From: Nitrososphaerota archaeon
GTDB lineage: Archaea > Thermoproteota > Nitrososphaeria > Nitrososphaerales > UBA57
Assembly (NCBI GenBank): GCA_002713205.1
Contig: PAVW01000020.1
Span: 9,349 to 41,348, forward strand
Length of the DNA: 32,000 nt
Reading direction: 5' to 3'
Below the pieces are notes generated by a model. That model did not search any database, had not been told where the DNA came from, and worked only from the letters and a program-made list of their open reading frames with translations. The position numbers and the translations under genes are program-made. This document shows positions 7,605-25,282 of the stretch, in pieces (the stretch's first letter is position 1; every line of letters starts with the position of its first letter).

Positions 7605-7610
7605 GATGAT

Positions 7611-7646
7611 AGTTGTCCCTCTGGGACAACTTCATATTTTTTTTTT
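7611..7646 (+). terminator. Stem-loop plus oligo-T transcription terminator
   Basis: Perfect 9-bp inverted repeat agttgtccc (7611-7619) / gggacaact (7623-7631) with a 3-nt loop. A run of 10 T follows at 7637-7646, six nt after the stop codon of the 5331..7604 gene. Confidence 0.6.
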
Positions 7647-7699
7647 CGATTAAATTCCTTCAGCTACACTTATTATTATAAAAACCAAAATAAATTTCA

Positions 7700-7999: not shown

Positions 8000-8004
8000 T
8001 TATC

Positions 8005-9195: not shown

Positions 9196-9316
9196 TGATT
9201 AATTGGTATTGATATTATTAATTTTTATGATTATATAATATTGATTATATATTTTTGATTTGATAATTAACTATTAAATATAAATAGATAGTGGTTATTT
9301 TTACTAGTGATGTCTC

Positions 9317-9922
9317 ATGGAAAATAATCAGAAAAATAGCAATATTCTTGATGACGTTGCAAAAGAAACTGAAACTGAAATTATGTCTATTATCAACGAA
9401 GGATTTGAACAAGCCAGAAAAATAATTGAAGACTCTGAAAATCGGACAAAAATTGATATAAATGATATTAGTACTTTCCAAGAAAAAGAATCCGAAATTC
9501 TCTCACGTCAAATATTAGGTACTGCTGAAATTGAAAAACGAAATACTGTTCTAAAAATTATTGAAAAAAATATTAATAAAGTCTTTATTACAGCGCTTAA
9601 AGAACTAAATAAAAATAAAGATAAAAATTATCAAAAATCTCTAAATAGTTTTCTTACCGAAGGTGTTGTTTTATTGGATGATTCAATATTATATGTTTCT
9701 TGCAATAAAAAAGATAGACAATTAATTAAAAAAATTATTCCAACTCTCTCCAAACAATATGATAAGGAAATTAAACTTAATGATGAATCCATCGATACTT
9801 GTGGTGGCGTTATTATTCGTAATGCTGATAGTTCAGTTAGTATTAATAATACTATTGAAGAACGATTAGAAAGAATGAAACCAGAACTTCGTACTGAAAT
9901 TGTTAAAAAATTTACTAAATAA
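9317..9922 (+). CDS. atpE: A-type ATP synthase subunit E (peripheral stalk)
   Basis: 201 aa. Charged helical N-terminal half. The C-terminal globular part (...SIDTCGGVIIRNADSSVSINNTIEERLERMKPELRTEIVKKF) is colinear with archaeal AtpE C-termini (...GGxIxxxxDGxxxxDNTxExxxxR...). Confidence 0.75.
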   Translation: MENNQKNSNILDDVAKETETEIMSIINEGFEQARKIIEDSENRTKIDINDISTFQEKESEILSRQILGTAEIEKRNTVLKIIEKNINKVFITALKELNKNKDKNYQKSLNSFLTEGVVLLDDSILYVSCNKKDRQLIKKIIPTLSKQYDKEIKLNDESIDTCGGVIIRNADSSVSINNTIEERLERMKPELRTEIVKKFTK

Positions 9923-9938
9923 TATTTTTTTACTTTAA

Positions 9939-11132
9939 ATGATTTTTTTGAATAATCAAAAAACTCTAATTATACTTTATTCAGTTGTTTTTTGCGTTGC
10001 AACTGGTTTGTCTATAATTACTCCTGCACTTTCATTATATGCAAGAGAGTTCGCCGCAACTAATTTTATGATAGGTGGTTTAATAGCTGGATTTGGGATT
10101 GCTCGTGTTTTTGTTAATCTCCCTGCAGGGATGTTTGCAGATAAATATGATCAAAAACAATTAATGCAATTTGGATTATCGATTATAATTATTTCATCAT
10201 TAGTTGCTGCATTTTCTCCCTCTTATTCAATATTATTGCTTTGTAGAATTGTTGAAGGTGTTGGTTCTGCTTTTTATATGGTTTCCGCATCTACTCTTTT
10301 GAATTCAATTGTTCCTATCTCAAAACGCGGTCGTGCATTGAGTTATTATACTGCTTCCATTCTTTTTGGCGTAATTATAGGACCAATTTTAGGTGGCATT
10401 ATTGTACCACTTTATGGTAAAAGTTCTCCGTTTATTTTCTATTCTTTAATGACACTTGCTGGTCTTCTTATAACTCGTTATTTTATTACTAATACTGTTA
10501 AAATTTCCACTAATAGATCCCCATTTAGTTTGAATCATCTTAAAAATCGTTCACTTCTACTCGTTTCACTTTCTACTTTTGCTTTTGCATTTAGTTGGAC
10601 TGGTTTAGAATTAACTGTTATACCTATTTTTGCATATGATAAGTTACAACTTTCTCCACTATTACTTGGTCTAACTATAAGCATTGCAGCTGTTTCTAAT
10701 TTGGCAAGTACTTTGTTTGCTGGTCATTTAACTGATAGATTTGGTAGAAAAAAACCAATTATATTAAGTCTATTTTGTACAGCTATTGTCGCTTATTGCT
10801 TGTCATTGTCTTATTCTTTTTACAGCTTGTTGTTCTTTATGTCACTTTTTGGATTATCTAGCGGTTTATGGGGGCAAACACAAGCTTGGGCAGCTGATTT
10901 ATCTGACAAAAAACATTTAGGCAGTTTTCTTGGTTTTAATCGCACAATGGGTGATTTGGGCTTTGTCATTGGTCCAATTTTACTGGGTTATCTTTCCTCA
11001 AGTTATTCTGTTAATAATATAAGTTTATTACCCTTTTACTTTGATTCACTTGTTTTGATTATTATTGCAATAGCTATAGTATTTGCCAAGGATCCCGCGG
11101 CTAATTTAAATACTAAATCTAAAAAAAACTAA
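9939..11132 (+). CDS. Major facilitator superfamily transporter
   Basis: 397 aa, about 12 predicted TM helices. MFS loop motifs GMFADKYDQKQ and GHLTDRFGRKKP. Substrate unknown. Confidence 0.8.
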   Translation: MIFLNNQKTLIILYSVVFCVATGLSIITPALSLYAREFAATNFMIGGLIAGFGIARVFVNLPAGMFADKYDQKQLMQFGLSIIIISSLVAAFSPSYSILLLCRIVEGVGSAFYMVSASTLLNSIVPISKRGRALSYYTASILFGVIIGPILGGIIVPLYGKSSPFIFYSLMTLAGLLITRYFITNTVKISTNRSPFSLNHLKNRSLLLVSLSTFAFAFSWTGLELTVIPIFAYDKLQLSPLLLGLTISIAAVSNLASTLFAGHLTDRFGRKKPIILSLFCTAIVAYCLSLSYSFYSLLFFMSLFGLSSGLWGQTQAWAADLSDKKHLGSFLGFNRTMGDLGFVIGPILLGYLSSSYSVNNISLLPFYFDSLVLIIIAIAIVFAKDPAANLNTKSKKN

Positions 11133-12471: not shown

Positions 12472-14262
12472 TTGGTCGCAAAAGGTAAGATAATATGGAT
12501 TAGTGGTCCAGCAGTAAAAGCAGATGGTATGTCTACTGCTCAAATGTATGAAACTGTAGAAGTTGGCGAAGATAAGATTGTTGGTGAAATCATTCGACTC
12601 ACTGGTGATACTGCATTTATTCAAGTTTATGAATCTACAAGTGGACTTACCCCTGGCCAACCAGTTGTTGGAACTGGTTCTCCTCTCTCTGTGACTTTGG
12701 GACCGGGAATGATGGGAACTATTTATGATGGTTTACAACGACCTCTTGATAAAATTGCTGCTAAGGCAGGTGATTTTATTACTCGAGGCATTCATGTTCC
12801 TCCAATTCCTAAAAAGAAATGGAATTTCTTACCATCTGTAAAAAAAGGCGATATTGTTAAAGCTGGTAGTATATTAGGCACTGTTAAAGAAACTGATTTA
12901 ATAGATCATAAAATTCTAGTTCCTCCTACTCATTCAGGTGGAAAAATTTCTGAAATTGTTAAAGAAGGTAAGTATGATAAAGATTATGTTATTGCTGTAG
13001 TGGACAATAAAAATGATAAATATGAATTATTTATGCACCATAATTGGCCTGTAAGACAACCACGACCATTTTCACAAAGATATGATCCTGAACTTCCTCT
13101 TATAACTGGACAACGTGTTCTTGATACATTTTTCCCTATCGCTAAAGGTGGAACTGCTGCAATACCAGGTGGTTTCGGTACCGGTAAAACAGTAACTTTA
13201 CATCAAGTTGCTTCTTGGTCCGATGCCAGTGTTGTTTTCCATATTGGTTGTGGAGAACGTGGCAATGAAATGACTGAAGTTTTGATTAAATTCCCTGAAT
13301 TAAAAGATCCTCGTACTGGAAAATCATTAATGGAACGTACAATATTAGTAGCAAACACAAGTAATATGCCTGTAGCGGCACGAGAAGCAAGTATCTATAC
13401 TGGTATAACTATGGCTGAATATTATAGGGATATGGGTTATGACACTGTACTTGTTGCTGATTCTACAAGTCGATGGGCTGAGGCACTGCGTGAATTAAGT
13501 GGCAGATTAGAAGAAATGCCTGCAGAAGAAGGCTATCCGTCATATCTTGCATCACGATTAGCCGAATTTTATGAACGCGCTGGTCGAGTAAAGTGTTTAG
13601 GTTCTCCTGATCGAGATGGATCTGTAACTGTAATTGGTGCTGTTTCTCCACCGGGTGGTGATTTTACTGAACCTGTTTCTACTCATACTATGAGATGTAT
13701 CAAAACTTTTTGGGCTCTTGACACAAAACTAGCTTATTCTAGACATTATCCGTCAATAAATTGGATGACTAGTTATTCTGGTTATGCAGAATCAATTGAT
13801 AATTGGTGGGTATCTAATGTTGATAAAGACAGACCAAAACTTAGACTTGAAACATATACTATATTACAGCGTGAAGACGTGTTAAAAGAAATTGTTAGAT
13901 TATTGGGACCCGAGGCGTTACCTGATGAGGAAAAACTAATACTTGATGTTGCTCGTATGATAAAAGAAGGATTCTTACAACAGATGGCTTTTGATAAGGT
14001 TGATAGATATTGCAGTCCCGAAAAGCAGGTGAAAATGATGAAAATCTATGTTAATTTCTATAAAGAATGTCAAAAAGCATTAAGTAATGGTGTTTCTTTG
14101 GAAAGCATTCGTTCTCTTCCAGTTATTTCTCAAATAATTAGATCTAAATACGAAATTTCTGATAACGAACTTGAAAAAATGGATGAATTGTATAAAATTA
14201 CAATGAAATCAATAACTGAATTATCTGGTAAGGAGGTCCCAGTAGTTGCCGACTCAAAATAG
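12472..14262 (+). CDS. atpA: A-type ATP synthase catalytic subunit A
   Basis: 596 aa, TTG start (first start after an in-frame TAA). Walker [60 protein letters not shown]. Includes the non-homologous insert typical of A/V-type A subunits. Confidence 0.95.
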
Positions 14263-15643
14263 ATCCACTGGTTTAGAATATAGTAAAATCTCAGAAATTA
14301 AAGGCCCATTGCTGATTATTGATGGAGTTACGGGTGCTGCATTTGATGAATTGGTTGAAATAGAAACTCCTTCACATGAAAAACGATTAGGTCGTGTATT
14401 GGAAATAGGAGGAGGCCGTGCTGTTGTTCAAGTTTTTGAAGGTACTACTGGACTTTCTGTTTCAGAAACAAAAACTAGATTCTTAGGAAAAACTATGAAA
14501 ATTCCTGTATCGGATCAATTACTGGGGCGTGTTTTTGATGGATTAGGAAGACCAATTGATAATCTTCCAGATCCTGTAGGCGATAGATTTGATGACATTA
14601 ATGGCGAGTCTATAAATCCTGAAAGACGGGATTTTCCAGAAGATTTTATTCAAACAGGTGTCTCATCAATTGATGGTCTTAATACTTTAGTTCGTGGTCA
14701 AAAATTACCTATATTCTCAGGAGCCGGACTTCCACATAACCTACTTGCTGCTCAAATCGCACGTCAGGCTACAGTTCCTGGCAAAGGTGAAGAATTTGCT
14801 GTAGTTTTTGCTGCAATTGGTGTTCAAAATAGCGAAGCAAGTTTCTTTCGAAAATCATTAGAAGAAAGCGGCGCAATAAAACGGAGTATTCTTTATATTA
14901 ATTTGGCTGATGATCCTGCTATTGAAAGAATTATTACTCCTCGTGTTGCACTTACTGCAGCTGAATATTTGGCATTTGAAAAAGACACTCATGTCTTAGT
15001 TATAATTAGTGACATGACAAATTATGCTGAAGCATTACGTGAAATTAGTGCTGCACGAGAAGAAGTACCTGGCCGTAAAGGATATCCTGGGTATCTCTAC
15101 ACTGATCTTGCAACAATTTATGAACGAGCTGGAAAAATTAAAGGACGAAACGGAAGCTTGACACAGATTCCAATTTTATCTATGCCATCTGATGATATAA
15201 CTCATCCAATTCCTGATCTTACCGGTTATATTACTGAAGGTCAAATTGTTTTAGGACGGGATTTACATCGCAAAGAAATTTATCCGCCTATCAGTATTCT
15301 TTCATGCTTAAGTCGATTAATGAAAGAAGGTGTTGGCGAAGGTAAAACTCGTCAGGATCATCAAAATGTAAGTAGTCAACTATATAGTGCTTATTCTAGG
15401 TCACTTGAGTTGCGTGCATTAGCCGAAATTGTAGGCAAAGCTGGTCTTGCCCCTGTTGATATTAAATATTTAGAATTTGGCGATTTATTTGAGGATAAAT
15501 TCCTTAAACAAGGTTTTGATGAAAATAGAACACTAGAAGATACGCTTGGAATAGCATGGGAATTGTTTAGTACTTTACCAGTTGATGAATTAACCAAAGT
15601 AAAACAAGATGAAATTAGTTTATATTTGAAGGCCAAAGCATAA
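14246..15643 (+). CDS. atpB: A-type ATP synthase subunit B
   Basis: 465 aa. TTG start preceded by aggagg at 14231-14236, overlapping atpA by 17 nt. Motifs [68 protein letters not shown]. Confidence 0.95.
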
Positions 15644-16272
15644 TGTCAAGTTCTAATAAACGACCTCCTCCAACAAAACTTGAATTGATTAAACTAAAAC
15701 GAAGTTTAGTCGTTGCAAAATCTGTTTATAAAATTCTTGAGGACAAACGCGATGTTTTGCTTAAACGAATTGAGGAAATGATAGATGAAGCAGGTCAAGC
15801 TAGAACTGATATGTCAGAGCCTTTATCTGATGCTTATAGATCTTTGTTTAACGCTTACTTGACTTTAGGCTCTAATAAACTCGAATCTATTGCCCATACT
15901 ACGCCTTCTCATCTTGATATTGATGTAAATGTTAAAGTTATTGTCGATGTTCGAATACCGAGTTTCACAATTAATGAAAAAAAACTTGGCTTGAACTATG
16001 GTTTTGCAGATTCAAATTCAAACTTAGACCAAGCCACCAAAATGATGCGTTTAGTTTTACCTCGAATTCTTAAGGCTGCAGAATATGAAAATACTATACT
16101 AGGTCTTGCTAGAGGATTAGAAAAAACACAACGACTCATTAATGCCCTCGAATATGTTATCATGCCAGATTATCAAGAATCAATCAAGTTTATATCTTCT
16201 ATTTTGGAAGAACGAGAACGTGAAGATTTTGCACGTCTCAAACATGTAAAAAAGGTAATTCAGAGTAGGTAA
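15643..16272 (+). CDS. atpD: A-type ATP synthase subunit D (central stalk)
   Basis: 209 aa. TAATG stop/start overlap with atpB. N-terminal PTKLELIKLKRSLVVAKSVYKILEDKRDVLL matches the subunit D signature (PTKxxLxxLKxxLxxAxxGxxLLKxKRDxL). Confidence 0.9.
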   Translation: MSSSNKRPPPTKLELIKLKRSLVVAKSVYKILEDKRDVLLKRIEEMIDEAGQARTDMSEPLSDAYRSLFNAYLTLGSNKLESIAHTTPSHLDIDVNVKVIVDVRIPSFTINEKKLGLNYGFADSNSNLDQATKMMRLVLPRILKAAEYENTILGLARGLEKTQRLINALEYVIMPDYQESIKFISSILEEREREDFARLKHVKKVIQSR

Positions 16273-16284
16273 ACGGTGTAAAAA

Positions 16285-16413
16285 TTGAAGCGGAATAAAA
16301 AATATGAAGATTTACTTGATTTAATACAAAAGCAATTTAATTCTGATGTTGATGAATTAAAAAAATCTATCATTTTGGTACGAGATAAGGCTTATAAAGC
16401 ATTGAAAAAATAA
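16285..16413 (+). CDS. Possible 42-aa small ORF between atpD and atpK (charged helical peptide)
   Basis: Too short for the ORF track. TTG at 16285 to TAA at 16411-16413 reads (M)KRNKKYEDLLDLIQKQFNSDVDELKKSIILVRDKAYKALKK. Co-oriented with and sandwiched between ATPase genes. No homology evidence is available. Confidence 0.25.
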   Translation: MKRNKKYEDLLDLIQKQFNSDVDELKKSIILVRDKAYKALKK

Positions 16414-16434
16414 TAACCAAATAATAGGACATTG

Positions 16435-16746
16435 ATGAAAATGAGCTCTATAACATCTATAACAATAATTGCATTAATCTCAATAGCATTTCTAAGTTTT
16501 CTTCCTTTTGCTTTAGCTCAAGAAGAACAATCTACTGGCGGAGATATGAAATATATTGGTGCAGCAATAGCTTTTGCTGGTGCTGCCATCGGTGCTGGAA
16601 TTGGAATTGGTCAAGCAGGTTCTGCTGGTTTAGCTGCTGCCGCTGAAAACGAAAGTATGAAAACACAAGGTCTTATTATCACTGCATTAGCAGAAGCTGT
16701 TGCTATCTATGGTATAGTTGTAGCTTTGTTAATATTAGGCAGTTAG
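16435..16746 (+). CDS. atpK: A-type ATP synthase proteolipid subunit K (c subunit)
   Basis: Gly/Ala-rich helical hairpin AAIAFAGAAIGAGIGIGQAGSAGLAAAAEN...LIITALAEAVAIYGIVVALLILG, with the conserved ion-binding Glu in LAEAVAIYG. ATG at 16435 is preferred over the track's TTG at 16432. About 35 aa of N-terminal signal-like extension (ITIIALISIAFLSFLPFALAQEE). Confidence 0.9.
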   Translation: MKMSSITSITIIALISIAFLSFLPFALAQEEQSTGGDMKYIGAAIAFAGAAIGAGIGIGQAGSAGLAAAAENESMKTQGLIITALAEAVAIYGIVVALLILGS

Positions 16747-16979
16747 GACTTATTAATTACACTGACTCTTTCTAGTATTCTTGATATTAGTATAATGGAG
16801 ATTATCAAACCTAGCATTGATAACACTAAAGGAATTATAATAGGTTCGAAAAAATTTATTCGGTCAGAAATTCTTAAACCAATACCTAGTCCTCCTATAA
16901 CAAATGAAGATATTAAAACCGGAAGTAGAACTAATATGATTTTCTTGTCTATCTGGTATTTCTTCGTTCTAGTTGCCAA
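16743..16979 (-). CDS. Small two-TM membrane protein, hypothetical
   Basis: 78-aa ORF starting 4 nt downstream of the pyrI stop on the same strand, so possibly co-transcribed. Two clear hydrophobic helices. Its 3' end overlaps the atpK stop by 4 nt (convergent). Confidence 0.4.
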   Translation of the reverse strand: MATRTKKYQIDKKIILVLLPVLISSFVIGGLGIGLRISDRINFFEPIIIPLVLSMLGLIISIILISRILERVSVINKS

Positions 16980-16983
16980 TTTT

Positions 16984-17463
16984 TCATCTGCTTAACAAAA
17001 TTTCTTCTGGGAGTAATATTCTTGAGCAATATTTACATCTTAATTTTGGCGGATCTTTTTTTAAAACTAAAAGTTCTGATATTATTGGTTCACTAGCATT
17101 AGATATGCAAGTTGGATTTGTACATTTGAAAACATCTACAAAGCTTTTCGGCAGCTTGACATTTCTTTTTTCTGTTATCTTATAATTTTGAATGATATTG
17201 ATTGTTGTATTAGGCGAAATCAAAGCCAAACGATTTGTTTCATCAACTACTAGAATTCTATTTTCAACTTTTACTATATCTTTTTTATTTAATCTTTTAC
17301 TTGGGACGTTCATTGCTACAGAAACTTGATTTCCATCTGTACCTTTTATATCGAGTGCAGCCAAGACATTGAAAGCATGTCCTGATTCAATATGATCTAA
17401 TACGGTTCCTTGACGTATTCGATTAATTATTAATTCCTTTTCTGACATTGCTATAATAGACAA
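16984..17463 (-). CDS. pyrI: Aspartate carbamoyltransferase regulatory subunit
   Basis: 159 aa. N-terminal allosteric domain (INRIRQGTVLDHI). C-terminal Zn domain with four Cys (FKCTNPTCISN...LRCKYCSR). Confidence 0.9.
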   Translation of the reverse strand: MSIIAMSEKELIINRIRQGTVLDHIESGHAFNVLAALDIKGTDGNQVSVAMNVPSKRLNKKDIVKVENRILVVDETNRLALISPNTTINIIQNYKITEKRNVKLPKSFVDVFKCTNPTCISNASEPIISELLVLKKDPPKLRCKYCSRILLPEEILLSR

Positions 17464-17539
17464 ATGGAGATTGGAAATTAAGTTTAACTATCGATTAAAT
17501 AACTATAGCTAACTATTTAGTTACAAACTGCTAAACATC

Positions 17540-17548
17540 TTTATATAA
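17540..17548 (+). promoter_or_regulatory. Putative TATA box of pyrB
   Basis: tttatataa is centred about 28 nt upstream of the pyrB ATG (17573), consistent with a leaderless or very short-leader transcript. It lies in the 109-bp pyrI/pyrB divergent intergenic region. Confidence 0.35.
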
Positions 17549-17572
17549 TCCTTTTTGTAGATTATTAGAAGG

Positions 17573-18499
17573 ATGACCAACCCATTTTATAACAAAAATG
17601 TGGTTTCCATAAGAGATTTTACACGTAATGATCTCGAATACCTCTTTCATGTTGCAGATAATATTAATTCAAATTCTTTATGCGAAGCACTTCGAAATAA
17701 AATTTTAGGATTAGTGTTTTTTGAACCAAGTACTCGAACTCGTTTAAGTTTCGAGTCAGCAATGAATTCTCTTGGTGGAACATGTATTGGTTTTTCAGAA
17801 TCCTCGTCTTCTTCTACTGAAAAAGGAGAAAATTTGAATGACACTCTAGTTACTATGAATCAATATGTTGATGCTTTAGTTTTACGACATCAAAAAGACG
17901 GTGTTGCTCGTTTTGCTTCTGAAATTTGCACCAAACCAGTAATAAATGCAGGTAGTGGTACTGAAGAACATCCAACTCAGGCAATGCTGGATTTGTATAC
18001 CATTTTTAAAGAACTCGGTACTATTGACAATCTTAATATTGGGATTTTTGGAGATCTAAAATATGGCAGAACAGTATATTCTTTATTATATGGATTATCA
18101 AATTATAATCCTACTGTATATTTAATTTCTCCTGACCTGTTACAACTTCGTAGTGATGCACTATCTGATATTAGAGAGAAGTTGTCTATTGAACAACATA
18201 GTAACCTATCTGATGTAATCTCTAAATTAGATGTTATATACACTACTCGAATACAAAAAGAACGTTTTCCTGATATTCAGGAATATGAAAGAGTAAAAGG
18301 TTCGTATAGAATTGATGAATCACTATTAAAAAATACCAAAGATAATCTTATAATTCTTCATCCAATGCCACGTTCTGAAGAAATCCCGCCAAGTCTTGAT
18401 ACTACTAAATACGCAAAATATTTTAAACAAATACGGTATGGAAAACTAATACGTTCAGCTTTATTATATCTGATTTTTACAGAACATCCAGAATATTGA
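17573..18499 (+). CDS. pyrB: Aspartate carbamoyltransferase catalytic subunit
   Basis: 308 aa. Carbamoyl-phosphate motif FFEPSTRTRLSFE. HPTQAMLDL, GDLKYGRTVYS, ILHPMPR. Confidence 0.95.
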   Translation: MTNPFYNKNVVSIRDFTRNDLEYLFHVADNINSNSLCEALRNKILGLVFFEPSTRTRLSFESAMNSLGGTCIGFSESSSSSTEKGENLNDTLVTMNQYVDALVLRHQKDGVARFASEICTKPVINAGSGTEEHPTQAMLDLYTIFKELGTIDNLNIGIFGDLKYGRTVYSLLYGLSNYNPTVYLISPDLLQLRSDALSDIREKLSIEQHSNLSDVISKLDVIYTTRIQKERFPDIQEYERVKGSYRIDESLLKNTKDNLIILHPMPRSEEIPPSLDTTKYAKYFKQIRYGKLIRSALLYLIFTEHPEY

Positions 18500-18509
18500 T
18501 TGAATCTAA

Positions 18510-20909
18510 TTAACCACAACTAGAATATGAACAGGATAAACATTTACTACATCCTTCGCTGTGTATTAATGAATTTTCACCGCACATTTCACATTGTTTT
18601 TTTACATTTATTTTTTCTTCCGTTTTTGAAATATTGACTTTTACTTCTTGTTCATTATTTATGACTTCTACTTGTTCATTATGTATAGTATCTGCAAGTG
18701 CATGAGCAACAGCGTCAGGCACCGATCTTATAGGAATGCTATTGCCTTTGGTTTGATGCCATGAGATATTCTTAGTTTGTATACCTCTCATTGTTTTGAT
18801 AATTGATGAAACATCAATATTTGATTGCAGAGCAATTGAAATCAGGCGACCCATTCCTTCATAGGCTGCTTTTTCTTCATCTACTGATTTTCCTCTCTCG
18901 ATAAAAACTTCACGAGGAACTCCATTTTCATCTTTATTAATCGTTATAAAGAGCCCACTATTGTTATATGTGAAACGATAAGTCCTTCCTATCAAATATT
19001 CTGGACGGATATATCCTCCTGATAAAATATGAGCCCCTTCTGCATTCTTGCTTTCTCTTAGATTCTTTGTTTTTTCTGTTTCTAAAACCTGTAAATCTAA
19101 ACAACCATCTCGATATACTGTAATTCCTTTACAATGTGTATTATAAGCTAAATTGTATGCTTTGTTAACATCTTCTACCGTTGCTTCATTGGGCAAATTA
19201 ATCGTTTTACTTACTCCGTCATCAACAAATTCTTGAAAAGCTGATTGCATTAAAACATGTTTTTCACCACTCAAATCAGATGCTATTGGAAACATGTCCT
19301 TGACGGTCTGAGGAATCCATGTAATGTCTTGTATACTTCCTCCATTTTTCGAAATTTCTAGAATCTTTTCTTTATCTAATGTTATTCCTTTTTCAGATAA
19401 TACCTCTTTAAAAAATTCATTTAAATGATGTAATTCTTCAAATTCTTCACTCCTCTCTTTTATCCTTGAATGTCTTACATACACCAATGCAAAATGTGGT
19501 TCTATTCCTGGTGAACAACTAGCTATGGTGCCAATTGAACCTGTTGGAGCTATTATTGTACAATTTACATTTCTAACTCTCTTTTGTGTTTTTGCAAAAT
19601 CACTTTTATCCCAATAAGGAAATGTCCCTCTTTTCTCTGCAAGATCTTCTGACATTTTCCATGCAACTTCTGAGATGAATTTCATTAGATTTCTTGCGAA
19701 TTGGTATGATTTTTCTGTTCCATATTTTATTCCTATTTTACTTAACAAATCAGCAAATCCCATTACACCTAAACCTAGTCTTCTCATGTTATGAGACATT
19801 TCTTTTATCTCGTTTGTGGGATATTTATTCACTGAAACAACATTATCCAGAAAATGAATTGTGTCTCTGACACTTTCTCTTAGTTTATTCCAGTCTATAT
19901 CATCATTCGTTGCATTAATAAATTTCACAACATTAATTGATCCGAGATTACAACTCTCATTTGGTAGAAGAGGTACTTCACCACATGGATTTGTAGATTC
20001 AATTGTAAAATGTTCTCGCACAGGATTTGATAAACTATTATTTATTTTATCAATAAATATTAAACCTGGGTCTGCACATTCCCATGCATATTGAATTATT
20101 TTTTCCCATAGTTCTTTCGCCTTTATTCTTTTAGGATTGCCTCCACATAATTTACACACGTCAAAAATATTTTTATCATTAAGAAAAATATTCTTTCCAC
20201 AATCTTCACATTTTAATACTTCATTTCCAGTTCTTGGATTAATAAATTTATGATTTTCATCATTTCGCAGTTCACTCATAAATTGTTCAGTAATTGCAAC
20301 CGATATGTTGAATTCTTTCATAATTTTTGCCTGTTCATCTAAATTCATATTATTTCTTTTCATTTCAATGAATTCAATTATATCTGGGTGTTCTATACTT
20401 AGAATTCCCATATTCGCACCTCTGCGTTTTCCTCCTTGTTTAATTACTTGTGTACATTTATCAAATAATTGCATAAATGATACTGGTCCTGATGCTACTG
20501 ATCCCGTAGATCCGACTTGATCTCCTTCAGGCCTTAATTTACTAAATGAAAATCCTGTTCCGCCACCTGTTTTTTGAACAATAGCTTGTGTTTTTACTGC
20601 TTCTAGTATTGAACTTGTATTATCTTCGACCGGTAGTACAAAACACGCTGATAATTGCCCTAAAGTTGCGCCTGCATTCATGAGTGTGGGTGAATTTGGT
20701 AAAAATTCAAAATTTTTCATTAATTTATAAAATTTTTCCTCTGACTCTACTATATTGAAATCATTATATTCATTATCTGCAATAGCAACTGTTTTAGCTA
20801 CTCTTCTAAACATTTGATCAGGTGTTTCTTGCTTTCCATCTTGTTTTATTAGATATCTTGCTTTCAACACTTTCATTACATTTTCGGATAAAGTTTCTGC
20901 AATTTCCAT
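18510..20909 (-). CDS. nrdJ: Class II (adenosylcobalamin-dependent) ribonucleotide reductase
   Basis: 799 aa. Active-site finger loop ESTNPCGEVPLLPNESCNLGSINV. N-terminal LKARYL...ETPDQMFRRVA. Internal CxxC...CxxC insert (CEDCGKN...CKLCGG). Cys-rich C-terminal tail (CEMCGEN...CSKCLSCSYSSCG) as used for re-reduction. Confidence 0.9.
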   Translation of the reverse strand: MEIAETLSENVMKVLKARYLIKQDGKQETPDQMFRRVAKTVAIADNEYNDFNIVESEEKFYKLMKNFEFLPNSPTLMNAGATLGQLSACFVLPVEDNTSSILEAVKTQAIVQKTGGGTGFSFSKLRPEGDQVGSTGSVASGPVSFMQLFDKCTQVIKQGGKRRGANMGILSIEHPDIIEFIEMKRNNMNLDEQAKIMKEFNISVAITEQFMSELRNDENHKFINPRTGNEVLKCEDCGKNIFLNDKNIFDVCKLCGGNPKRIKAKELWEKIIQYAWECADPGLIFIDKINNSLSNPVREHFTIESTNPCGEVPLLPNESCNLGSINVVKFINATNDDIDWNKLRESVRDTIHFLDNVVSVNKYPTNEIKEMSHNMRRLGLGVMGFADLLSKIGIKYGTEKSYQFARNLMKFISEVAWKMSEDLAEKRGTFPYWDKSDFAKTQKRVRNVNCTIIAPTGSIGTIASCSPGIEPHFALVYVRHSRIKERSEEFEELHHLNEFFKEVLSEKGITLDKEKILEISKNGGSIQDITWIPQTVKDMFPIASDLSGEKHVLMQSAFQEFVDDGVSKTINLPNEATVEDVNKAYNLAYNTHCKGITVYRDGCLDLQVLETEKTKNLRESKNAEGAHILSGGYIRPEYLIGRTYRFTYNNSGLFITINKDENGVPREVFIERGKSVDEEKAAYEGMGRLISIALQSNIDVSSIIKTMRGIQTKNISWHQTKGNSIPIRSVPDAVAHALADTIHNEQVEVINNEQEVKVNISKTEEKINVKKQCEMCGENSLIHSEGCSKCLSCSYSSCG

Positions 20910-21206
20910 AATTAATTCACTATAACTAACTATTATACGAACCAGTAATATTTGTACATTTATTATTTTTTACCGGATTAAACTCAATCATAAAAAAACT
21001 AGACATAATTTATTATAGCTAAATTTGTATATGATTGTTAAATTGAAAAAAAATTGACTAAATTCAATTTGTTAAAAATATATTTTATCTTTATTGGATT
21101 AAATCAAGGATTAAAATCAAAAAAAAACCTTATATCTGGTTTTTTATAAAATTGTTCTACAATTACGTCTGTCAAATGTTTGTGACTAATTTATTGAAAC
21201 CTATTT

Positions 21207-23291
21207 TTATTTGTGCGGGTATTCTATTAGAGATGTGGAATTACATTCAATACATTTTTCTGCGGAATGTACATTTTTCTTCGCACATGAAATGCATACT
21301 TTCATTTTGTGATAAAATTTAAAGAATGGTATTCTTTTCCCGGTTTTTTTTGCGATTTCAATAATATTTTTTGCATTTAAATCAGTCACGTTTATTGACA
21401 CTGAAAATCCTCCTTTGTACCTTTCTATGAATGTTCCAATATTATCTATTGTATCTGTCTCACTTGGATTTATAATAATTGATTGTGAATATGAATTGTC
21501 TTGATTTTCTGTCTTTACTCGCGCCTTGCCAAATTTATCTGTGTCAAGAAGAGCAAATCTCATACTTGATCCATCTGAAATTGTGGAAATCCCATATTCT
21601 TCGCCTAATTCTTTGCTTGCCGAAGCAATTTCTTCGTTTGCTGTATCTAAAATCTTTGAAATAAGTTTAGCTTTTTCTTTTCCTGTAGCTTTTGAATCGG
21701 TTAGTATATCTATTGATTCATTTAATCCTGTAAAGTTAATAATTAAAGGAATTTTTTGATTGGAAATAATTCCACTATTCATACGTAATAATGGCAAAAG
21801 ATCTTTTCCTACCATGTCGTCTATGATTTCTCTCCTTGTTGAAAGTGCTGAAATAGCTATTTTTAATATGAGATTCACTTTTGCTCTGAAATATATATCG
21901 TCTCTATTTGATTCATATGCTAATCGCGGTAAATTTATTGATAGTGAATGCAGTGCTATTCCCCCTCCGGCTTGTTTTTTATTATTTATTGATTTACTAA
22001 TTCCTAATAAACTGAAACAAGTTTTTTCATTACTGTTTATTGCTATATATCCTCCATTTTTTATAACTGGAATAATTTTATTCAGTATATCATTATCTGA
22101 TTTCTTCCAATCCACCGCTATAATTAAACCCACTTTTGGAATTGCAGTTGATTTGATATATTCAAAATATGATTCTAATATTACTTTATTTATTTTTGTT
22201 ATTTTTTTACCATCATTTTTATAATTCTTTGATATTGATAAATCTAAACTAATAAATGGTCCGTCAACTTCTGCTACAACTTGAGAAATCATTTTTATCA
22301 TTTGCGTAAGATTATCTTTTATATCCGCCATTGATTGATTGTCAGTGTATTTTAGTATGTAATCTAAAAAATTATTATAAATAATTTCTGAATTTATTTC
22401 TTTTTTTAATTCTGATGTTAACAAAACTATGTTTGCTAATGCGTCATTTAGTTTATTTGGCATTATTATTTTTACTGAATTTAGTAATTTTCCTTGTAAT
22501 TGTATGCCTTGTGCAGGTAATGAATTTAAATCTATGAATACATTATCTGGTTTTAATCCCCAAGCGCCCAAGTTTGAAATATGTATGTCTCCTGATAAAT
22601 GTGCATCTGTAATATCTCTCGTTAATTGATTTAATAATAAATATTCAGAAAAAACTGCTTTTGAAGTTTGAGAGATTACTGAATCCACACCATTGGTGCT
22701 TCTAGAAAATTGATTTAATAATTTTGTTACATCATATATTGGTAAACCTATTCTAGTTAATTTATGTCGATATTCTTCTAAACCATTTTCAATTAAGAGA
22801 CCATTTACTATTTCTCGGATTAAAGGAGCCGTTAAGTAGCTTGTTTGAAATTTATATAATCGTGTTTCTGCTTCACTGGTCATTTTCTGCGCTAAATCTA
22901 CAGGCATGCCTGCTTCGTTAACTAATGATTGTAGTATTCTATCAGGTTTGAATTCTTCCATCATTTCTCTTGACGTTCTGACATAGATCTTTCCACTTTC
23001 TATGACACTTTGCTCTTCAATTTGCCTTGTAAGATTCAAAATTAATCTGCCTAAATTTGTAACAGTATAGCGCCTTTCTGCTCTATTTAGAGTAACAAGC
23101 AGCTGCCGTACCAGTTTTCGAAGATGATATGCAAATTTACCTGATTCTTTTTTTGATTTAAAACCTGCAAGTGTCTTTAATTCTGAATAACTCAAAGGAC
23201 CCTTTGAATTAAGAATTCGTAAAATATCTAACCTGTTTGCCGATGCTATTACTGAGTAAATTGTTCTTACTCTTTTCGACGTGGCTTGCAT
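21207..23291 (-). CDS. Fusion protein: ArsR-like winged-helix DNA-binding domain + ATP-cone + class III RNR (NrdD)-like body with C-terminal Zn ribbon; glycyl-radical motif apparently absent
   Basis: Numbering from ATG at 23291 (694 aa). wHTH about aa 9-90 (NRLDILRILNSKGPLSYSELKTLAGF...FAYHLRKLVRQLLV...RYTVTNLGR). ATP-cone about aa 101-182 (KIYVRTSREMMEEFKPDRILQSLVNEAG...LTAPLIREIVNGLLIENGLEEYRHKL). NrdD-like blocks: AHLSGDIHISNLG, TCFSLLG, GGGIALHSLSINLPRLA, INFTGLNESI, SSMRFALLDTDKFG. Zn site CISC...CIEC is followed by only 11 residues (NSTSLIEYPHK). The track's start at 23354 is a TTG inside a repeated intergenic element and is rejected. Confidence 0.7.
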   Translation of the reverse strand: MQATSKRVRTIYSVIASANRLDILRILNSKGPLSYSELKTLAGFKSKKESGKFAYHLRKLVRQLLVTLNRAERRYTVTNLGRLILNLTRQIEEQSVIESGKIYVRTSREMMEEFKPDRILQSLVNEAGMPVDLAQKMTSEAETRLYKFQTSYLTAPLIREIVNGLLIENGLEEYRHKLTRIGLPIYDVTKLLNQFSRSTNGVDSVISQTSKAVFSEYLLLNQLTRDITDAHLSGDIHISNLGAWGLKPDNVFIDLNSLPAQGIQLQGKLLNSVKIIMPNKLNDALANIVLLTSELKKEINSEIIYNNFLDYILKYTDNQSMADIKDNLTQMIKMISQVVAEVDGPFISLDLSISKNYKNDGKKITKINKVILESYFEYIKSTAIPKVGLIIAVDWKKSDNDILNKIIPVIKNGGYIAINSNEKTCFSLLGISKSINNKKQAGGGIALHSLSINLPRLAYESNRDDIYFRAKVNLILKIAISALSTRREIIDDMVGKDLLPLLRMNSGIISNQKIPLIINFTGLNESIDILTDSKATGKEKAKLISKILDTANEEIASASKELGEEYGISTISDGSSMRFALLDTDKFGKARVKTENQDNSYSQSIIINPSETDTIDNIGTFIERYKGGFSVSINVTDLNAKNIIEIAKKTGKRIPFFKFYHKMKVCISCAKKNVHSAEKCIECNSTSLIEYPHK

Positions 23292-23340
23292 CTCTATTTT
23301 TATATATAAAAAAAAACATTTAAAGGTTAAGTAAAGTTGA

Positions 23341-23393
23341 CCATTTTTTGACAAAATTCTATTTTTGTACTAAAAACTGACCAAATTACTTAT
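23341..23393. repeat. Direct repeat copy 1 (53 bp) upstream of the wHTH/ATP-cone/NrdD-like gene
   Basis: ccattttttgacaaaattctatttttgtactaaaaactgaccaaattacttat. The last 31 bp are identical to copy 2 and the first 22 bp show about 6 mismatches. Confidence 0.85.
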
Positions 23394-23433
23394 CCCAGAT
23401 AAACTGTAACTCATTTTTTCATTACTATTTATT

Positions 23434-23486
23434 GCTTTTTTTGACTAAATTGCAGTTTTGTACTAAAAACTGACCAAATTACTTAT
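23434..23486. repeat. Direct repeat copy 2 (53 bp), 93 bp from copy 1
   Basis: gctttttttgactaaattgcagttttgtactaaaaactgaccaaattacttat. Shares the perfect 31-bp core ttttgtactaaaaactgaccaaattacttat with copy 1. Confidence 0.85.
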
Positions 23487-23541
23487 TTTAAATATTAAGG
23501 AATTAATTTATCTTCAAATCGAAAAATAATCATTATAGTGC

Positions 23542-23617
23542 GGGGCGGTAGTCTAGTCTGGTCTAAGATGTTAGCTTTGGGAGCTAATGATCGAGAGTTC
23601 GAATCTCTCTCGCCCCA
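23542..23617 (+). tRNA. tRNA-Pro (anticodon UGG), no intron, CCA not encoded
   Basis: Manual fold. Acceptor GGGGCGG/TCGCCCC (one G-U). D stem GTCT/AGAT. Anticodon stem TTAGC/GCTAA, loop TT-TGG-GA. Variable TGATC. T arm GAGAG-TTCGAAT-CTCTC. Discriminator A. Confidence 0.9.
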
Positions 23618-23636: not shown

Positions 23637-25085
23637 TCAAATAACAATTAATTTAATTGGTATTGATATAGTTATTGGTTCATTTCTTGCACTTATCATC
23701 AAAGTATATTCTCCTTTGTTTAATTTTTTATCAGTATCGATAATCACGTTTATGTATTTTTCTCCACTGATGGTTTTTCCATCATGATCAAATTCAACAG
23801 TTATATTCTGCAGTTTTCCATTATTTGAAAAAGTTCCTGATGCACTGAAATCAATATTTCTTGTTCCTTTAGTTTCTACTTTTAACATAAAGTTCGATTT
23901 TGAATTCGGTTGTATTTGAATTTCTCTTGTTGATGATTCTATGGAAAATGGTATCTCTTTTGATGAATTTAGAAACGCAATTTTACTTTCAGTCCATTCT
24001 GTAAACCAAATATTATCATTTTTATCTACATCGAACTGAAGTGAATTGGATATATTTCCCCAGTTTTTGTTTCTTGTTGGAATATCATATTCAATTAATA
24101 TTGCTTTTTCCATATCAAATTTTGCAATTGTATTTGCTTGGTGAACATTAAACCACATATTGCCTTTAGAATCGAATTTATTCCAATATGGTAATGTAGT
24201 CGAGAATTGTGATGTACTTAATGATGTGGAAAATTTTGTAAATGTATTATTTTTAAGATCGAATAATACAAATTGACTTGAACCATGGTCAGTTATCCAT
24301 ATCATCTCATTTTTAATTGCTATACCGACTGGAGATGTAATTTCTTTCGGCAATTCAAAAATTTTAAATTCATTTGTTTCTTCCATGAAGCTTATTACTT
24401 TGCCTTCTACAGGCCAAGTAAGAATTGTAAACCATATTTTATCGTTTGAATCTATAGATATTCCTCCTAACAAATCAAGTTTTATCGGCGGTTCAATTTC
24501 TTTAATTCCTTTACTTGTATTCATTAATATTTCATTAATATCCAATTTTGCTATTTTATTTCCAAAAATTTCTGCCACCCAAATATTATTATTGTTATCA
24601 TTGATTATTTGGACTGGATAACTTCCTTTCGTTGGAATTATAAAATTACTAAAACTTTTTTCCTCTTTATTGAATTTCCATATCATATTGTTTTTATGGT
24701 CAGTAAACCACAGATCTTCTTTAATAGATATTAAACTCCATGATTCTACTCCCTTAACACTTTTTGTTTTTATTACGAATTCTGTAAAAATTTCAGATTT
24801 TGGATCAAAAGAAACTAATTTGCTAAAGTTGTTTTCAATAAACCATATTGTATTTTGCTCATCTACAGTGATAGCTATTGGTGCTGAACAAGGTTGTGGA
24901 ATTATATATTCTGTAATGTATTCATTTTTGTTTGGTTTCCTTATGTTACAAGAATCATCTTTATTGTTGAAATCTGACATGTCGTATTCATTTTGTATTA
25001 AATATCCTAATGTTAATCCTAATGTTAGAGAAATTAACAATATTATAGTGACAAATTTGATATTCTTTTTAATAATTACTTTCAA
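23637..25085 (-). CDS. N-terminally anchored extracellular beta-propeller repeat protein (Vgb/COG4257-like blades) with C-terminal Ig-like domain
   Basis: 482 aa. N-terminal TM (FVTIILLISLTLGLTLGYLI). About seven roughly 40-45-aa repeats each ending in an aromatic W-F/I-T/A motif (TIWFIE, DLWFTDH, NIWVAE, KIWFTI, MIWITDH, NMWFNV, NIWFTEW), followed by a roughly 100-aa beta-rich tail. Family assignment is by repeat pattern only. Confidence 0.6.
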   Translation of the reverse strand: MKVIIKKNIKFVTIILLISLTLGLTLGYLIQNEYDMSDFNNKDDSCNIRKPNKNEYITEYIIPQPCSAPIAITVDEQNTIWFIENNFSKLVSFDPKSEIFTEFVIKTKSVKGVESWSLISIKEDLWFTDHKNNMIWKFNKEEKSFSNFIIPTKGSYPVQIINDNNNNIWVAEIFGNKIAKLDINEILMNTSKGIKEIEPPIKLDLLGGISIDSNDKIWFTILTWPVEGKVISFMEETNEFKIFELPKEITSPVGIAIKNEMIWITDHGSSQFVLFDLKNNTFTKFSTSLSTSQFSTTLPYWNKFDSKGNMWFNVHQANTIAKFDMEKAILIEYDIPTRNKNWGNISNSLQFDVDKNDNIWFTEWTESKIAFLNSSKEIPFSIESSTREIQIQPNSKSNFMLKVETKGTRNIDFSASGTFSNNGKLQNITVEFDHDGKTISGEKYINVIIDTDKKLNKGEYTLMISARNEPITISIPIKLIVI

Positions 25086-25161: not shown

Positions 25162-25282
25162 GCGGGGGTAGCCAAGCCAGGTCAAAGGCGCTGGACTTAA
25201 GATCTTTCTCAATTTTGAGAAACAGCAAAAATTGGATATCCCGTCTCTCAGGAGTTCGTGGGTTCAAATCCCACCCCCCGCA
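25162..25282 (+). tRNA. tRNA-Leu (anticodon UAA) with an intron of about 36 nt in the anticodon loop (approx. 25202..25237)
   Basis: Acceptor GCGGGGG/CCCCCGC, discriminator A. D arm GCC-AAGCCAGGTCAAA-GGC. Anticodon stem CTGGA, loop CT-TAA-G then intron. Exon 2 is A-TCCCG. Long variable arm T-CTC-TCAG-GAG-TTC (14 nt, Leu-type). T arm GTGGG-TTCAAAT-CCCAC. Mature length 85 nt. The junction is ambiguous by up to 3 nt (gatc / atc repeat). The anticodon stem carries one U-C mismatch. Confidence 0.8.

Follow-up and report, generated by a model that had tools for sequence, protein, structure and literature searches.

A putative archaeal regulator of ribonucleotide reductase genes built on an inactive class III reductase fold

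Beside the gene of a class II ribonucleotide reductase (RNR), in the 32-kb stretch of DNA analysed here (the window), lies a gene whose product resembles the class III enzyme NrdD and carries a winged helix-turn-helix (wHTH) in addition. What is such a protein for? The control of RNR transcription in archaea is poorly understood. The gene (21207..23291, stop codon included; reverse strand, as are its domains, nrdJ and all the boxes and other elements of the locus mapped below) encodes 694 aa, in which a wHTH, an ATP-cone-like domain and an NrdD-like pseudo-enzyme are joined, and its product is a putative RNR regulator. The initial annotation, which had the coordinates and strand right, proposed that a dead NrdD scaffold combined with a wHTH and an ATP-cone regulates RNR, and our computational analysis supports this core idea. 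The lost radical elements, the retained fold, the wHTH, the selection acting on the gene, its linkage to RNR and a common palindrome together suggest that the protein is probably a dimeric, nucleotide-sensing transcription factor for the RNR gene, derived from a dead class III RNR; its DNA binding, its effector and the sign of the regulation are what we infer.

A class III reductase fold and its missing radical residues

The open reading frame begins with an ATG at 23291. A longer version starting from a TTG at 23354 was judged unlikely and rejected, because a palindromic box and a TATA-like element, described below, fall within that extension; full-length homologues have 682-702 aa. The body of the protein (residues 201-655; 21327..22691) has, according to Pfam, Foldseek and alignments, an NrdD fold without the radical residues. 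The Pfam family NRDD (PF13597) matches residues 203-687 with 139.7 bits (E 1.6e-40), on profile positions 10-531 of 562. Foldseek retrieves the NrdDs of T. maritima, S. thermophilus and T4 with E-values of 1e-20 to 1e-22 (TM 0.55-0.69 against the NrdD structures 4coj, 9d3x and 1hk8). The ten-stranded barrel of NrdD is present, followed by its C-terminal four-Cys Zn ribbon (residues 656-694; 21210..21326), whose cysteines C666, C669, C680 and C683 are invariant in 89 sequences. The pseudo-enzyme also retains the NrdD motifs DAHxxGxIH, NLPR, RFxxxDxEKxG and GG, including N453 in NLPRLA, which corresponds to the Asn of NLPR that is invariant in the family.

What is missing is the radical machinery. 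Given that the PF13597 match ends at position 531 of 562, the last ~30 profile positions, which hold the glycyl-radical loop, have no counterpart in the protein. The chain terminates 11 residues past the last ribbon Cys, about where SRITGY would begin; the CxxC...CxxC ribbon and the stop 11 residues later had both been recognised initially. The same annotation read a Glu in place of the radical Gly, which proved to be a misalignment: SLIE-Y aligns with SIER-F of real NrdDs, that is, ahead of SRITGY, and the whole loop is deleted, with nothing substituted. The RxxGY motif, and with it the radical Gly, is consistently absent from the 116 full-length homologues inspected, all of which end 6-21 residues past the Zn ribbon. 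The betaA active-site Cys (NCC; C79 in T4) is replaced as well, the sequence being DNVFID in the window protein and PDTVFxDL in the family. The finger-loop Cys is not conserved either, with a family consensus of xSYSG. Cys425 of TCFSLL, likened at first to the thiyl-Cys region, is an accident of lineage: it is confined to the closest relatives of the window protein and is offset in the MAFFT alignment, and an orthologue of 68-69% identity has NNFSYSG at this place. A profile alignment to the T4, S. thermophilus and T. maritima enzymes places no Cys at the positions of T4 C79 or C290. Because the glycyl-radical loop, the betaA Cys and a conserved finger-loop Cys have all been lost family-wide, the 694-aa protein is, judged by its sequence, a catalytically dead NrdD copy that cannot do radical chemistry.

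The significant Pfam match and automated annotation, which often reads 'anaerobic ribonucleoside-triphosphate reductase', would fit a functional class III RNR extended at its N-terminus, or a pseudogene that arose recently from such an enzyme. Such an enzyme would, however, have to work without the Gly-radical loop, the betaA Cys and a conserved thiyl Cys, and every NrdD equivalog model scores far below its cut-off (TIGR02487 of NCBIfam, 114 bits vs 326). The gene of the activase, nrdG, is absent from the 32-kb window, as had been noted before, and the sole radical-SAM protein encoded there is Elp3-like (2922-4526). A frameshift suspected near 21207-21230 is excluded, since 116 of 116 full-length homologues end shortly past the ribbon; moreover, the ending ...CNSTSL(I/V)EYPHK followed by the stop is identical in the four closest homologues (P0001-P0004), and the spacer between this gene and nrdJ contains, in all three frames, no glycyl-radical-like coding in which a hidden C-terminus could lie. 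Measured against its relative in locus L084, the gene has a dN/dS of 0.13 overall, 0.05 for residues 1-200 and 0.15 for the body, so that purifying selection is strongest on the wHTH and the cone. The conserved truncation point together with the value of 0.13 excludes decay. At the level of sequence both versions are refuted, and we consider them extremely improbable.

The winged helix and the ATP-cone-like domain

Residues 1-98 (22998..23291) form an ArsR/DUF7347-type wHTH according to Pfam and AlphaFold2 (AF2). Over residues 11-85, DUF7347 scores 39.8 bits (cut-off 27.6) and HTH_20 28.7 bits (cut-off 27), and the ArsR-like domain named in the initial annotation agrees with the AF2 topology. 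An AF2 run with 21 sequences gave a pLDDT mostly below 50 over residues 1-211; this was remedied with 89 sequences, from which model 2 was built, with a whole-model pLDDT of 86 and the topology of wHTH and cone present. In that model the block of residues 11-90 has a pLDDT of 83-94, and the elements H6-14, H18-30, H35-42, H47-62, E66-69, E74-77 and H79-98 make up a helix-turn-helix with a beta-wing, as in ArsR/SmtB proteins. The recognition helix carries the invariant G51-x-F53-x-Y55-H56-L57. Mean pairwise identity of the wHTH is 84% among 21 Nitrososphaeria; the Bathyarchaeial wHTH is divergent (31% identity). The predicted domain may bind DNA in a sequence-specific manner, for which the conserved palindrome at both promoters, described below, is indirect evidence. 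It shares with ArsR/SmtB repressors the matches to HTH_20, HTH_5 and DUF7347 and the topology a1-a2-a3-aR-wing-a5, but nothing points to metal-sensing sites, and the effector module is of a wholly different kind. Single-sequence searches of the PDB with the wHTH fragment and with the cone fragment returned nothing useful.

The adjoining segment (residues 99-200; 22692..22997) comprises an ATP-cone-like domain of the variant VRTSR and a conserved linker, YLTAPLIRE...EEYRHKLTRLGLP. It is the part best conserved between Nitrososphaeria and Bathyarchaeia (60% identity) and lies close, in alignments, to the equivalent segment of real archaeal NrdDs. AF2 predicts the cone as a beta-hairpin with helices. 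Many homologues have a precomputed PF03477 match or score above the cut-off (26-36 bits in distant family members). The description of a clear ATP-cone in the initial annotation was slightly overstated for the window protein itself, whose residues 102-174 reach 24.8 bits, just below the cut-off of 25.8, and in which the canonical K-R dyad is absent. Where canonical cones read VxKRDG this one reads VRTSR, the dyad being replaced by T-S flanked by Arg in an alignment read by eye. Given the sub-threshold score and this replacement, nucleotide binding by the cone is not assured.

Linkage to reductase genes across archaea

The presumed target is nrdJ (18510..20909), which encodes a class II, B12-dependent RNR of 799 aa without an ATP-cone and is identified securely by TIGR02504 (696 bits vs a cut-off of 400). 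It follows the regulator gene on the same strand after a spacer of 297 bp, a spacing and orientation given correctly from the start. Among Nitrososphaeria loci with enough sequence, 72 of 72 have an RNR gene 3' of the regulator and in the same orientation; the RNR was typed in eight of these, and each of the eight is an NrdJ (class II), several subtypes being represented. A longer paralogue, with Ala in place of the Gly, directly precedes a true nrdD in three of three Bathyarchaeia loci, which represent two distinct genomic contexts since L083 duplicates L082. This downstream nrdD is bona fide, with SRITGYY or SRVTGYY and a QCC finger loop, and is followed by pyrB and pyrI in the same way as in the window; L082 runs on into ATPase genes. 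An RNR gene is not adjacent in three loci of more distant lineages, labelled Aigarchaeota, Nitrososphaeria and Baldrarchaeia. The family is encoded in at least 512 species genomes, and its reach into Bathyarchaeia and other archaeal lineages is wider than was supposed at first.

Gene adjacency fits a physical partnership as well as it fits regulation, and the protein might be an allosteric partner or chaperone acting on RNR by contact, for instance by offering an ATP-cone in trans to a cone-less NrdJ, with the wHTH as an interaction module or in a minor role. The window NrdJ lacks a cone, and the body keeps its non-radical NrdD motifs under the purifying selection mentioned above (dN/dS 0.15). 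We nevertheless find such a partnership quite unlikely. Many of the partner NrdJs, e.g. those of L007, L061, L073 and L056, possess an N-terminal ATP-cone of their own, and a specific protein interface is hard to reconcile with the switch of the partner from NrdD to another class, NrdJ, beside a regulator that stays. Furthermore, the recognition helix of the wHTH is the most conserved element, and a palindrome is common to both promoter regions. These observations favour the transcription factor. From the synteny, it would have arisen as a paralogue beside nrdD in an anaerobic ancestor and would have stayed put when Nitrososphaeria exchanged nrdD for nrdJ at the same locus. If true, this would be a clear case of a regulator that outlasted the replacement of its target enzyme class.

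A palindrome in the promoter regions and the proposed regulation

Two regions, the promoter of the regulator gene itself and the spacer that separates this gene from the RNR gene, are about 9-fold enriched in a 16-bp palindrome, GTCAA-N6-TTGAC. If up to one mismatch is allowed, there are 83 copies in 34.4 kb of these target regions and 9 in 32.8 kb of non-coding DNA elsewhere in the same loci, counts that are not independent events because the loci are phylogenetically related; dinucleotide shuffles yield 1.1 +/- 1.0 matches. When half-site spacings of 3-8 in either orientation are allowed, 69 of 79 loci contain a box, and the spacing is 6 in 84 of the 147 matches. The boxes are the only invariant blocks in the footprinting alignments A3 and A4. 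The significance of the palindrome rests on this cross-species analysis, since the window alone, with three motifs against 1.4 expected, does not differ significantly from its shuffles (16 of 100 reach three). The enriched k-mer GTTCACA turned out to be a soil-clade variant (TTCAC) of the right half-site of the same box. No GTCAA box is present in Bathyarchaeial loci, which fits their divergent wHTH (31% identity).

In the window, box A (GTCAACTTTACTTAAC; 23326..23341), one mismatch from the consensus, abuts a TATA-like element (CTTTAAATG; 23317..23325) in the promoter of the regulator gene itself; just one upstream block is invariant in A3, among relatives down to 67% protein identity, and box A is part of it. 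The TATA-like element, also invariant in A3, would by analogy with general archaeal promoter architecture be a promoter element, and since its centre is ~30 nt ahead of the ATG, the mRNA should have no leader or almost none. In soil clades, box and TATA overlap (GTTAAATACAATTGAC). Box B (GTCACAAACATTTGAC; 21171..21186), again with one mismatch, is situated where the spacer begins, 20 nt beyond the stop codon of the regulator, and appears in A4 as the invariant block AGTCA.AAACA.TTGAC; in other clades, too, a box is found at +5 to +35 past the stop. Closer to nrdJ there is a degenerate box (GTCAATTTTTTTTCAA; 21043..21058), whose GTCAA half-site is invariant in A4, and 7 nt 3' of it a TATA-like sequence (ATCATATACAAATT; 21022-21035), with ATxAxATAC.AxATT invariant in A4; both are candidate regulatory elements. 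A T9 tract between box B and this proximal box (21119..21127) is likely the terminator of the regulator transcript, by analogy with oligo-T termination in archaea. For a simple repressor, the position of box B, ahead of T9 and some 150 nt upstream of the likely nrdJ TATA, is odd. Upstream of the regulator, a 73-nt sequence is directly repeated (23344-23416 and 23437-23509), and the copies contain the half-sites GGTCA and (A/T)GTCAA; they are present in L084 and L085 and absent from L087, L001 and L006, and may possibly be auxiliary sites, although their relevance is uncertain. When the spacers of the window and of 10 loci were compared with Rfam, no RNA family was detected, so a riboswitch is unsupported.

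The distribution of boxes also bears on the question of whether RNR is only one target among others, such as pyrBI or DNA-replication genes, of a broader regulator of nucleotide metabolism or replication. The window shares its conserved pyrB/pyrI neighbourhood with the Bathyarchaeia loci and with L090, labelled Baldrarchaeia, and some lineages place the regulator away from RNR: beside pyrB in L090, and beside unrelated genes in the other two RNR-less loci. On the other hand, no box was found between pyrI and pyrB of the window. Moreover, of the 12 exact boxes counted over all 88 loci, the regulator and RNR regions hold 10, leaving only two elsewhere in ~950 kb of loci. A broader role is, as far as these loci show, unlikely. 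A transcription factor dedicated to RNR would form dimers in the manner of NrdD enzymes, with the N-terminal core helices as the interface, so that each wHTH domain would meet one half of the palindrome, whose half-site centres are 11 bp apart. Occupation of the box that abuts or overlaps the BRE/TATA of its own promoter would result in autorepression, and the one or two boxes in the spacer would serve to control nrdJ. By analogy with NrdR and with NrdDs that have an ATP-cone, ATP or dATP on the cone may alter conformation or oligomeric state and thereby DNA binding, remnants of the specificity and active sites may contribute to sensing, and RNR transcription would be coupled to the dNTP pool. 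It is also conceivable, though we propose it only tentatively, that the protein is a hitherto unrecognised archaeal master regulator of dNTP supply, a complete class III RNR turned ligand sensor, with several inherited allosteric sites (ATP-cone, specificity site and former active site) to read the nucleotide pool and a wHTH controlling RNR transcription, which survived the swap of oxygen-sensitive nrdD for B12-dependent nrdJ at the transition to aerobic ammonia-oxidising archaea; its conservation would then span the whole existence of Nitrososphaeria and Bathyarchaeia.

NrdR has been reported to be rare in archaea (PMC9110341, PMC12176259), and the 694-aa protein would fill that gap. Both are presumed to act as nucleotide-sensing transcription factors dedicated to RNR genes, have an ATP-cone (here an ATP-cone-like domain), are encoded beside nrd genes, and have palindromic boxes at nrd promoters and apparent autoregulation. 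However, DNA binding resides in an N-terminal Zn ribbon in NrdR and in an unrelated wHTH here, where the Zn ribbon is C-terminal and of the NrdD type. Paired NrdR boxes were not found, GTCAA-N6-TTGAC being present instead, and an enzyme-derived body of 450 residues is added to a cone without the canonical K-R dyad. The protein is best read, from these comparisons, as a functional analogue of NrdR and not as a homologue. It is homologous to the NrdDs of T4, T. maritima, S. thermophilus and P. copri over the ATP-cone, the barrel and the Zn ribbon, but differs from them by the absence of the glycyl-radical loop, the betaA Cys and the conserved finger-loop Cys, by the added wHTH, and by its occurrence in organisms whose RNR gene at the locus is nrdJ.

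Enzyme-derived effector domains attached to a (w)HTH occur in MocR/PdxR (aminotransferase-like), in NrtR (Nudix-like) and in ROK or SorC repressors. There, as proposed here, an inactive copy of a pathway enzyme senses a ligand and controls the same pathway; in contrast to MocR/PdxR-type regulators, the sensor of the archaeal protein may have inherited up to three nucleotide sites (cone, specificity and active). We know of no enzyme-derived regulator based on a glycyl-radical enzyme or an RNR, and this one, if confirmed, would be the first in which such a scaffold was recycled as the sensor of a transcription factor. No description of the architecture wHTH, ATP-cone and NrdD-like body was found in the RNR, NrdR and ATP-cone literature searched, in line with the earlier remark that no characterised protein of this kind was known to its author, and an RNR regulator based on a dead NrdD is most likely a type not yet described. 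The family is a concrete and testable candidate for RNR regulation in ammonia-oxidising archaea and Bathyarchaeia. Many database entries label relatives of the regulator as 'anaerobic ribonucleoside-triphosphate reductase', which wrongly implies a class III RNR capacity in Nitrososphaeria, a class that includes aerobic ammonia oxidisers.

Domain architecture and predicted fold of the putative regulator

The regulator gene (21207-23291, minus strand, start ATG at 23291) encodes 694 aa. The Pfam NRDD profile matches residues 203-687 (139.7 bits, E 1.6e-40, profile positions 10-531 of 562), and since the match ends at position 531, the C-terminal ~30 positions, corresponding to the glycyl-radical loop, are absent. 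Residues 11-85 match DUF7347 (39.8 bits) and HTH_20 (28.7 bits), each above its Pfam cut-off. The ATP-cone, which the initial annotation had called clear, is matched at residues 102-174, with a score (24.8 bits) slightly below the cut-off of 25.8. The protein falls far below threshold in all curated NrdD equivalog models, e.g. 114 against 326 bits for TIGR02487. The class II RNR gene nrdJ (18510-20909, minus strand; TIGR02504 696 bits, cut-off 400) lies 297 bp downstream on the same strand, and its product has no ATP-cone. These scores and positions confirm the initial observation of an ORF joining a wHTH, an ATP-cone and an NrdD-like body beside a class II RNR gene, with two corrections, concerning the C-terminal glycyl-radical segment and the finger-loop Cys.

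A second AlphaFold2 run, with an 89-sequence alignment (pLDDT 86.3, pTM 0.73), gave a winged helix of textbook form (H6-14, H18-30, H35-42, H47-62, wing E66-69 and E74-77, H79-98) and a cone made of a beta-hairpin and helices. The NrdD-like body was borne out by Foldseek, in which class III RNRs were the only strong matches (S. thermophilus 9d3x, E 8e-21; T. maritima 4col, E 3e-20, and 4coj, E 4e-22, the latter with the first AlphaFold2 model; T4 1hk8, TM 0.69). The NrdD fold has been retained and the catalytic residues have been lost.

The regulator is functional, and the strongest constraint acts on the wHTH and the cone. Comparison with L084, a relative at 89% protein identity, gives a dN/dS of 0.13 for the whole protein, with 0.05 in residues 1-200 and 0.15 in the body. 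In a set of 21 diverse Nitrososphaeria, mean pairwise identity is 84% in the wHTH, 76% in the cone and linker, and 31-58% in the body. Across 89 sequences from two archaeal classes 41 columns are invariant, among them G51, F53, Y55, H56 and L57 of the recognition helix, V104, R105, F114 and I119 of the cone, and LIRE, YR, R180, G182 and P184 of the linker. A profile search identified residues 1 to ~255 (wHTH, cone and first NrdD-core helices) as a module conserved superfamily-wide, which fits a unit for DNA binding, nucleotide sensing and dimerisation. The cone motif reads VRTSR in place of VxKRDG; given that the real NrdD of the Bathyarchaeia locus L082 has the same variant, it is lineage-typical, and the nucleotide ligand of the cone is putative.

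Loss of the radical chemistry

Thousands of relatives were recovered when 5.8 billion proteins were searched. Among the best 120 homologues, 116 are full-length (682-702 aa); every one ends 6-21 residues after the second CxxC, and RxxGY was found in none of them. Alignment with bona fide NrdDs, having SRITGY, an MGCR or MCCR finger loop and the betaA Cys, places the end of the regulator approximately where SRITGY would start. The S-L-I-E-Y previously read as Glu for the radical Gly proved to be a misaligned segment preceding the motif, and the loop has been deleted rather than substituted. Where T4 and S. thermophilus NrdD have the betaA 'NCC', the regulator has DNVFID and the family PDTVFxDL. 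The finger loop, 'KTCFSLLG' in the window, is 'KNNFSYSG' in a 68-69%-identical orthologue, so that the Cys of TCFSLL, likened earlier to the thiyl-Cys region, is already missing from a close relative. The Asn of NLPR, which we take to be the equivalent of T4 N311, and the four Zn-ribbon Cys are invariant in the 89 sequences.

It had also been suspected that a frameshift conceals a true C-terminus in the spacer between the regulator stop codon and nrdJ. No frame of the window spacer encodes one, and this, together with the common end point in the 116 homologues, rules out a frameshifted NrdD. Judged from its sequence, the regulator is a pseudo-enzyme. As initially noted, nrdG was not found within the window; the single radical-SAM protein there (2922-4526, minus strand) is Elp3-like, with radical SAM and GNAT domains, and is not an NrdG activase. 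Four other NrdD-like homologues with ATP-cones and without a wHTH (P0243, P0250, P0264 and P0216) likewise lack the finger-loop Cys, the RxxGY Gly or both, which suggests additional pseudo-NrdD lineages.

Linkage to RNR genes and a candidate operator

In a scan of one genome per species, a relative is encoded in at least 512 genomes. Of the 80 loci retained, nearly all carry the label Nitrososphaeria or Thaumarchaeota and the rest have generic labels; they include Nitrosopumilales, Nitrososphaera, Nitrosotalea, Nitrosomirales and Gagatemarchaeum. An RNR large-subunit gene lies downstream on the same strand in 72 of the 72 loci with enough downstream DNA, after a spacer of ~150-350 nt in loci with well-placed starts. 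Eight of the RNRs were typed, and each passes the NrdJ equivalog model; they belong to differing subtypes, with or without their own ATP-cone, and one apparently contains an intein. Within Nitrososphaeria, the linkage between the regulator and an RNR gene is invariant. Much longer nrdJ products (1110-1166 aa) are encoded downstream in L011, L026, L042, L050 and L076, and the L011 insertion matches an intein-containing DnaB-type helicase model, suggesting an intein. Just upstream of the regulator gene, on the opposite strand, the window has a tRNA-Pro (anticodon TGG; 23542-23617, plus strand); L001 and the upstream sequences of L087 and L006 have a tRNA at the corresponding place.

The k-mer GTCAA(A) occurs upstream of the regulator in 33 of 62 loci (5.1 expected), and TGTCAA / TTGACAA in the spacer in 44 of 61 (9.1 expected). 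They resolve into a 16-bp palindrome, GTCAA-N6-TTGAC, common to both regulatory regions, which we regard as a candidate operator; a half-site spacing of 6 accounts for 84 of 147 matches. Allowing one mismatch, 83 palindromes were counted in 34.4 kb of target regions against 9 in 32.8 kb of non-coding DNA elsewhere in these loci; shuffles that preserve dinucleotides gave 1.1 +/- 1.0 (maximum 4). At least one box (spacing 3-8, either orientation) is present in 69 of 79 loci. These counts are not independent because the loci are related. Across all 88 loci there are 12 exact palindromes, ten of which are located ~-87 relative to the start of the regulator or ~+25 or ~+172 relative to its stop. 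The window alone holds three matches against 1.4 expected, which is not significant.

Box A of the window (23326-23341, GTCAACTTTACTTAAC) abuts CTTTAAATG (23317-23325), centred ~30 nt before the regulator ATG, and box B (21171-21186, GTCACAAACATTTGAC) lies 20 nt past the stop codon. A proximal box of degenerate sequence (21043-21058) is followed by the TATA-like ATCATATACAAATT (21022-21035). In footprinting against relatives whose proteins are 89% and 67-69% identical, essentially only these blocks are invariant, and soil clades have a box that overlaps the regulator's own TATA (GTTAAATACAATTGAC).

Other elements occur nearby. An ATG at 21004-21006 (minus strand), ~22 nt 3' of ATCATATACAAATT, is invariant among relatives and opens a 26-codon uORF (20926-21006). 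The encoded peptide is not conserved, and the ATG is more likely to mark the region where nrdJ transcription starts than to begin a leader peptide. A second motif, ATGAGACGC / GCGTCTCAT, which sits a few nt beyond the 3' side of the GTCAA box or flanks it as an inverted pair in the spacers of L007, L010, L014, L018, L031, L042 and L060, does not occur in the window spacer and has no Rfam match; another factor could bind there, or the motif could extend the operator. Upstream of the regulator, a 73-nt direct repeat with GGTCA and (A/T)GTCAA half-sites (23344-23416 and 23437-23509, 79% identity, 93-nt spacing) is shared with L084 and L085 (both at 89% protein identity) and not with more distant relatives. 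A third near-match, GTCAAAGGCGCTGGAC (25181-25196), ~100 nt upstream of a Vgb_lyase-like beta-propeller gene (23637-25085, minus strand), is probably due to chance.

We infer that the regulator is a putative transcription factor dedicated to RNR, which would sense nucleotides through a module derived from an enzyme. The NrdD core would mediate a dimer presenting two wHTH domains to the palindrome. Occupancy of box A may block TBP/TFB, causing autorepression, and the spacer boxes would control nrdJ, for which a loop joining boxes ~130 bp apart is one possible means. DNA affinity might be set, as in NrdR, by ATP and dATP at the cone, perhaps along with dNTPs at the inherited specificity site or the former active site.

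Known relatives and proposed ancestry of the gene pair

In design, the regulator resembles MocR, NrtR and others, which use an inactivated pathway enzyme as sensor. Functionally, the closest system is NrdR, whose DNA-binding domain is however unrelated and whose boxes differ; NrdR has been reported to be rare in archaea (PMC9110341, PMC12176259). Evolutionarily, the regulator is a paralogue of NrdD that lacks four of the five testable features by which the enzyme family is defined. In agreement with the initial annotation, no description of this architecture was found in full-text literature on RNR phylogeny, ATP-cones and NrdR. Databases label such proteins 'ArsR family regulator', 'HTH domain-containing protein' or 'anaerobic ribonucleoside-triphosphate reductase', and JGI 'anaerobic ribonucleoside-triphosphate reductase/predicted transcriptional regulator'. 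The regulator bears on how archaea regulate dNTP synthesis and is open to direct testing.

An exhaustive profile search uncovered a second family of longer proteins (~740-775 aa), labelled Bathyarchaeia in a further homologue search, that shares the wHTH and cone and whose C-terminal domain is complete; there RxxGY has become R(I/S)SAKY (Gly to Ala), and the betaA Cys is missing. Its gene immediately precedes a true nrdD (SRITGYY or SRVTGYY, QCC finger loop, RPFCQ), flanked by a glutaredoxin or thioredoxin gene and then pyrB(-)/pyrI; in L082 the block runs on into A-type ATPase genes. The order regulator, nrdJ, pyrB, pyrI, ATPase in the window has the same layout, and the pyrB / pyrI / A-type ATPase block is conserved across the window (12472-18499), L082 (12883-18301) and L090, a locus labelled Baldrarchaeia (7339-11001), where it contains no RNR gene. 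These layouts are most simply read as an ancestral pairing of the regulator with nrdD, in which nrdJ took the place of nrdD at the same locus in the Nitrososphaeria lineage. Lineages labelled Aigarchaeota, Conexivisphaerales, Hecatellales and Baldrarchaeia have relatives that are more degenerate (526-650 aa, in some cases lacking the Zn ribbon) as well as some of full length; the three loci examined from such lineages have no adjacent RNR gene, which limits the ancestral-pair reading, and their other flanking genes match the ancestral neighbourhood. Bathyarchaeial loci have some other site instead of the GTCAA box. In L082, AATGTAAAATT occurs upstream of the regulator and right after its stop codon, upstream of nrdD (~7960-7985 and 10298-10315), mirroring the layout of boxes A and B with a different sequence.
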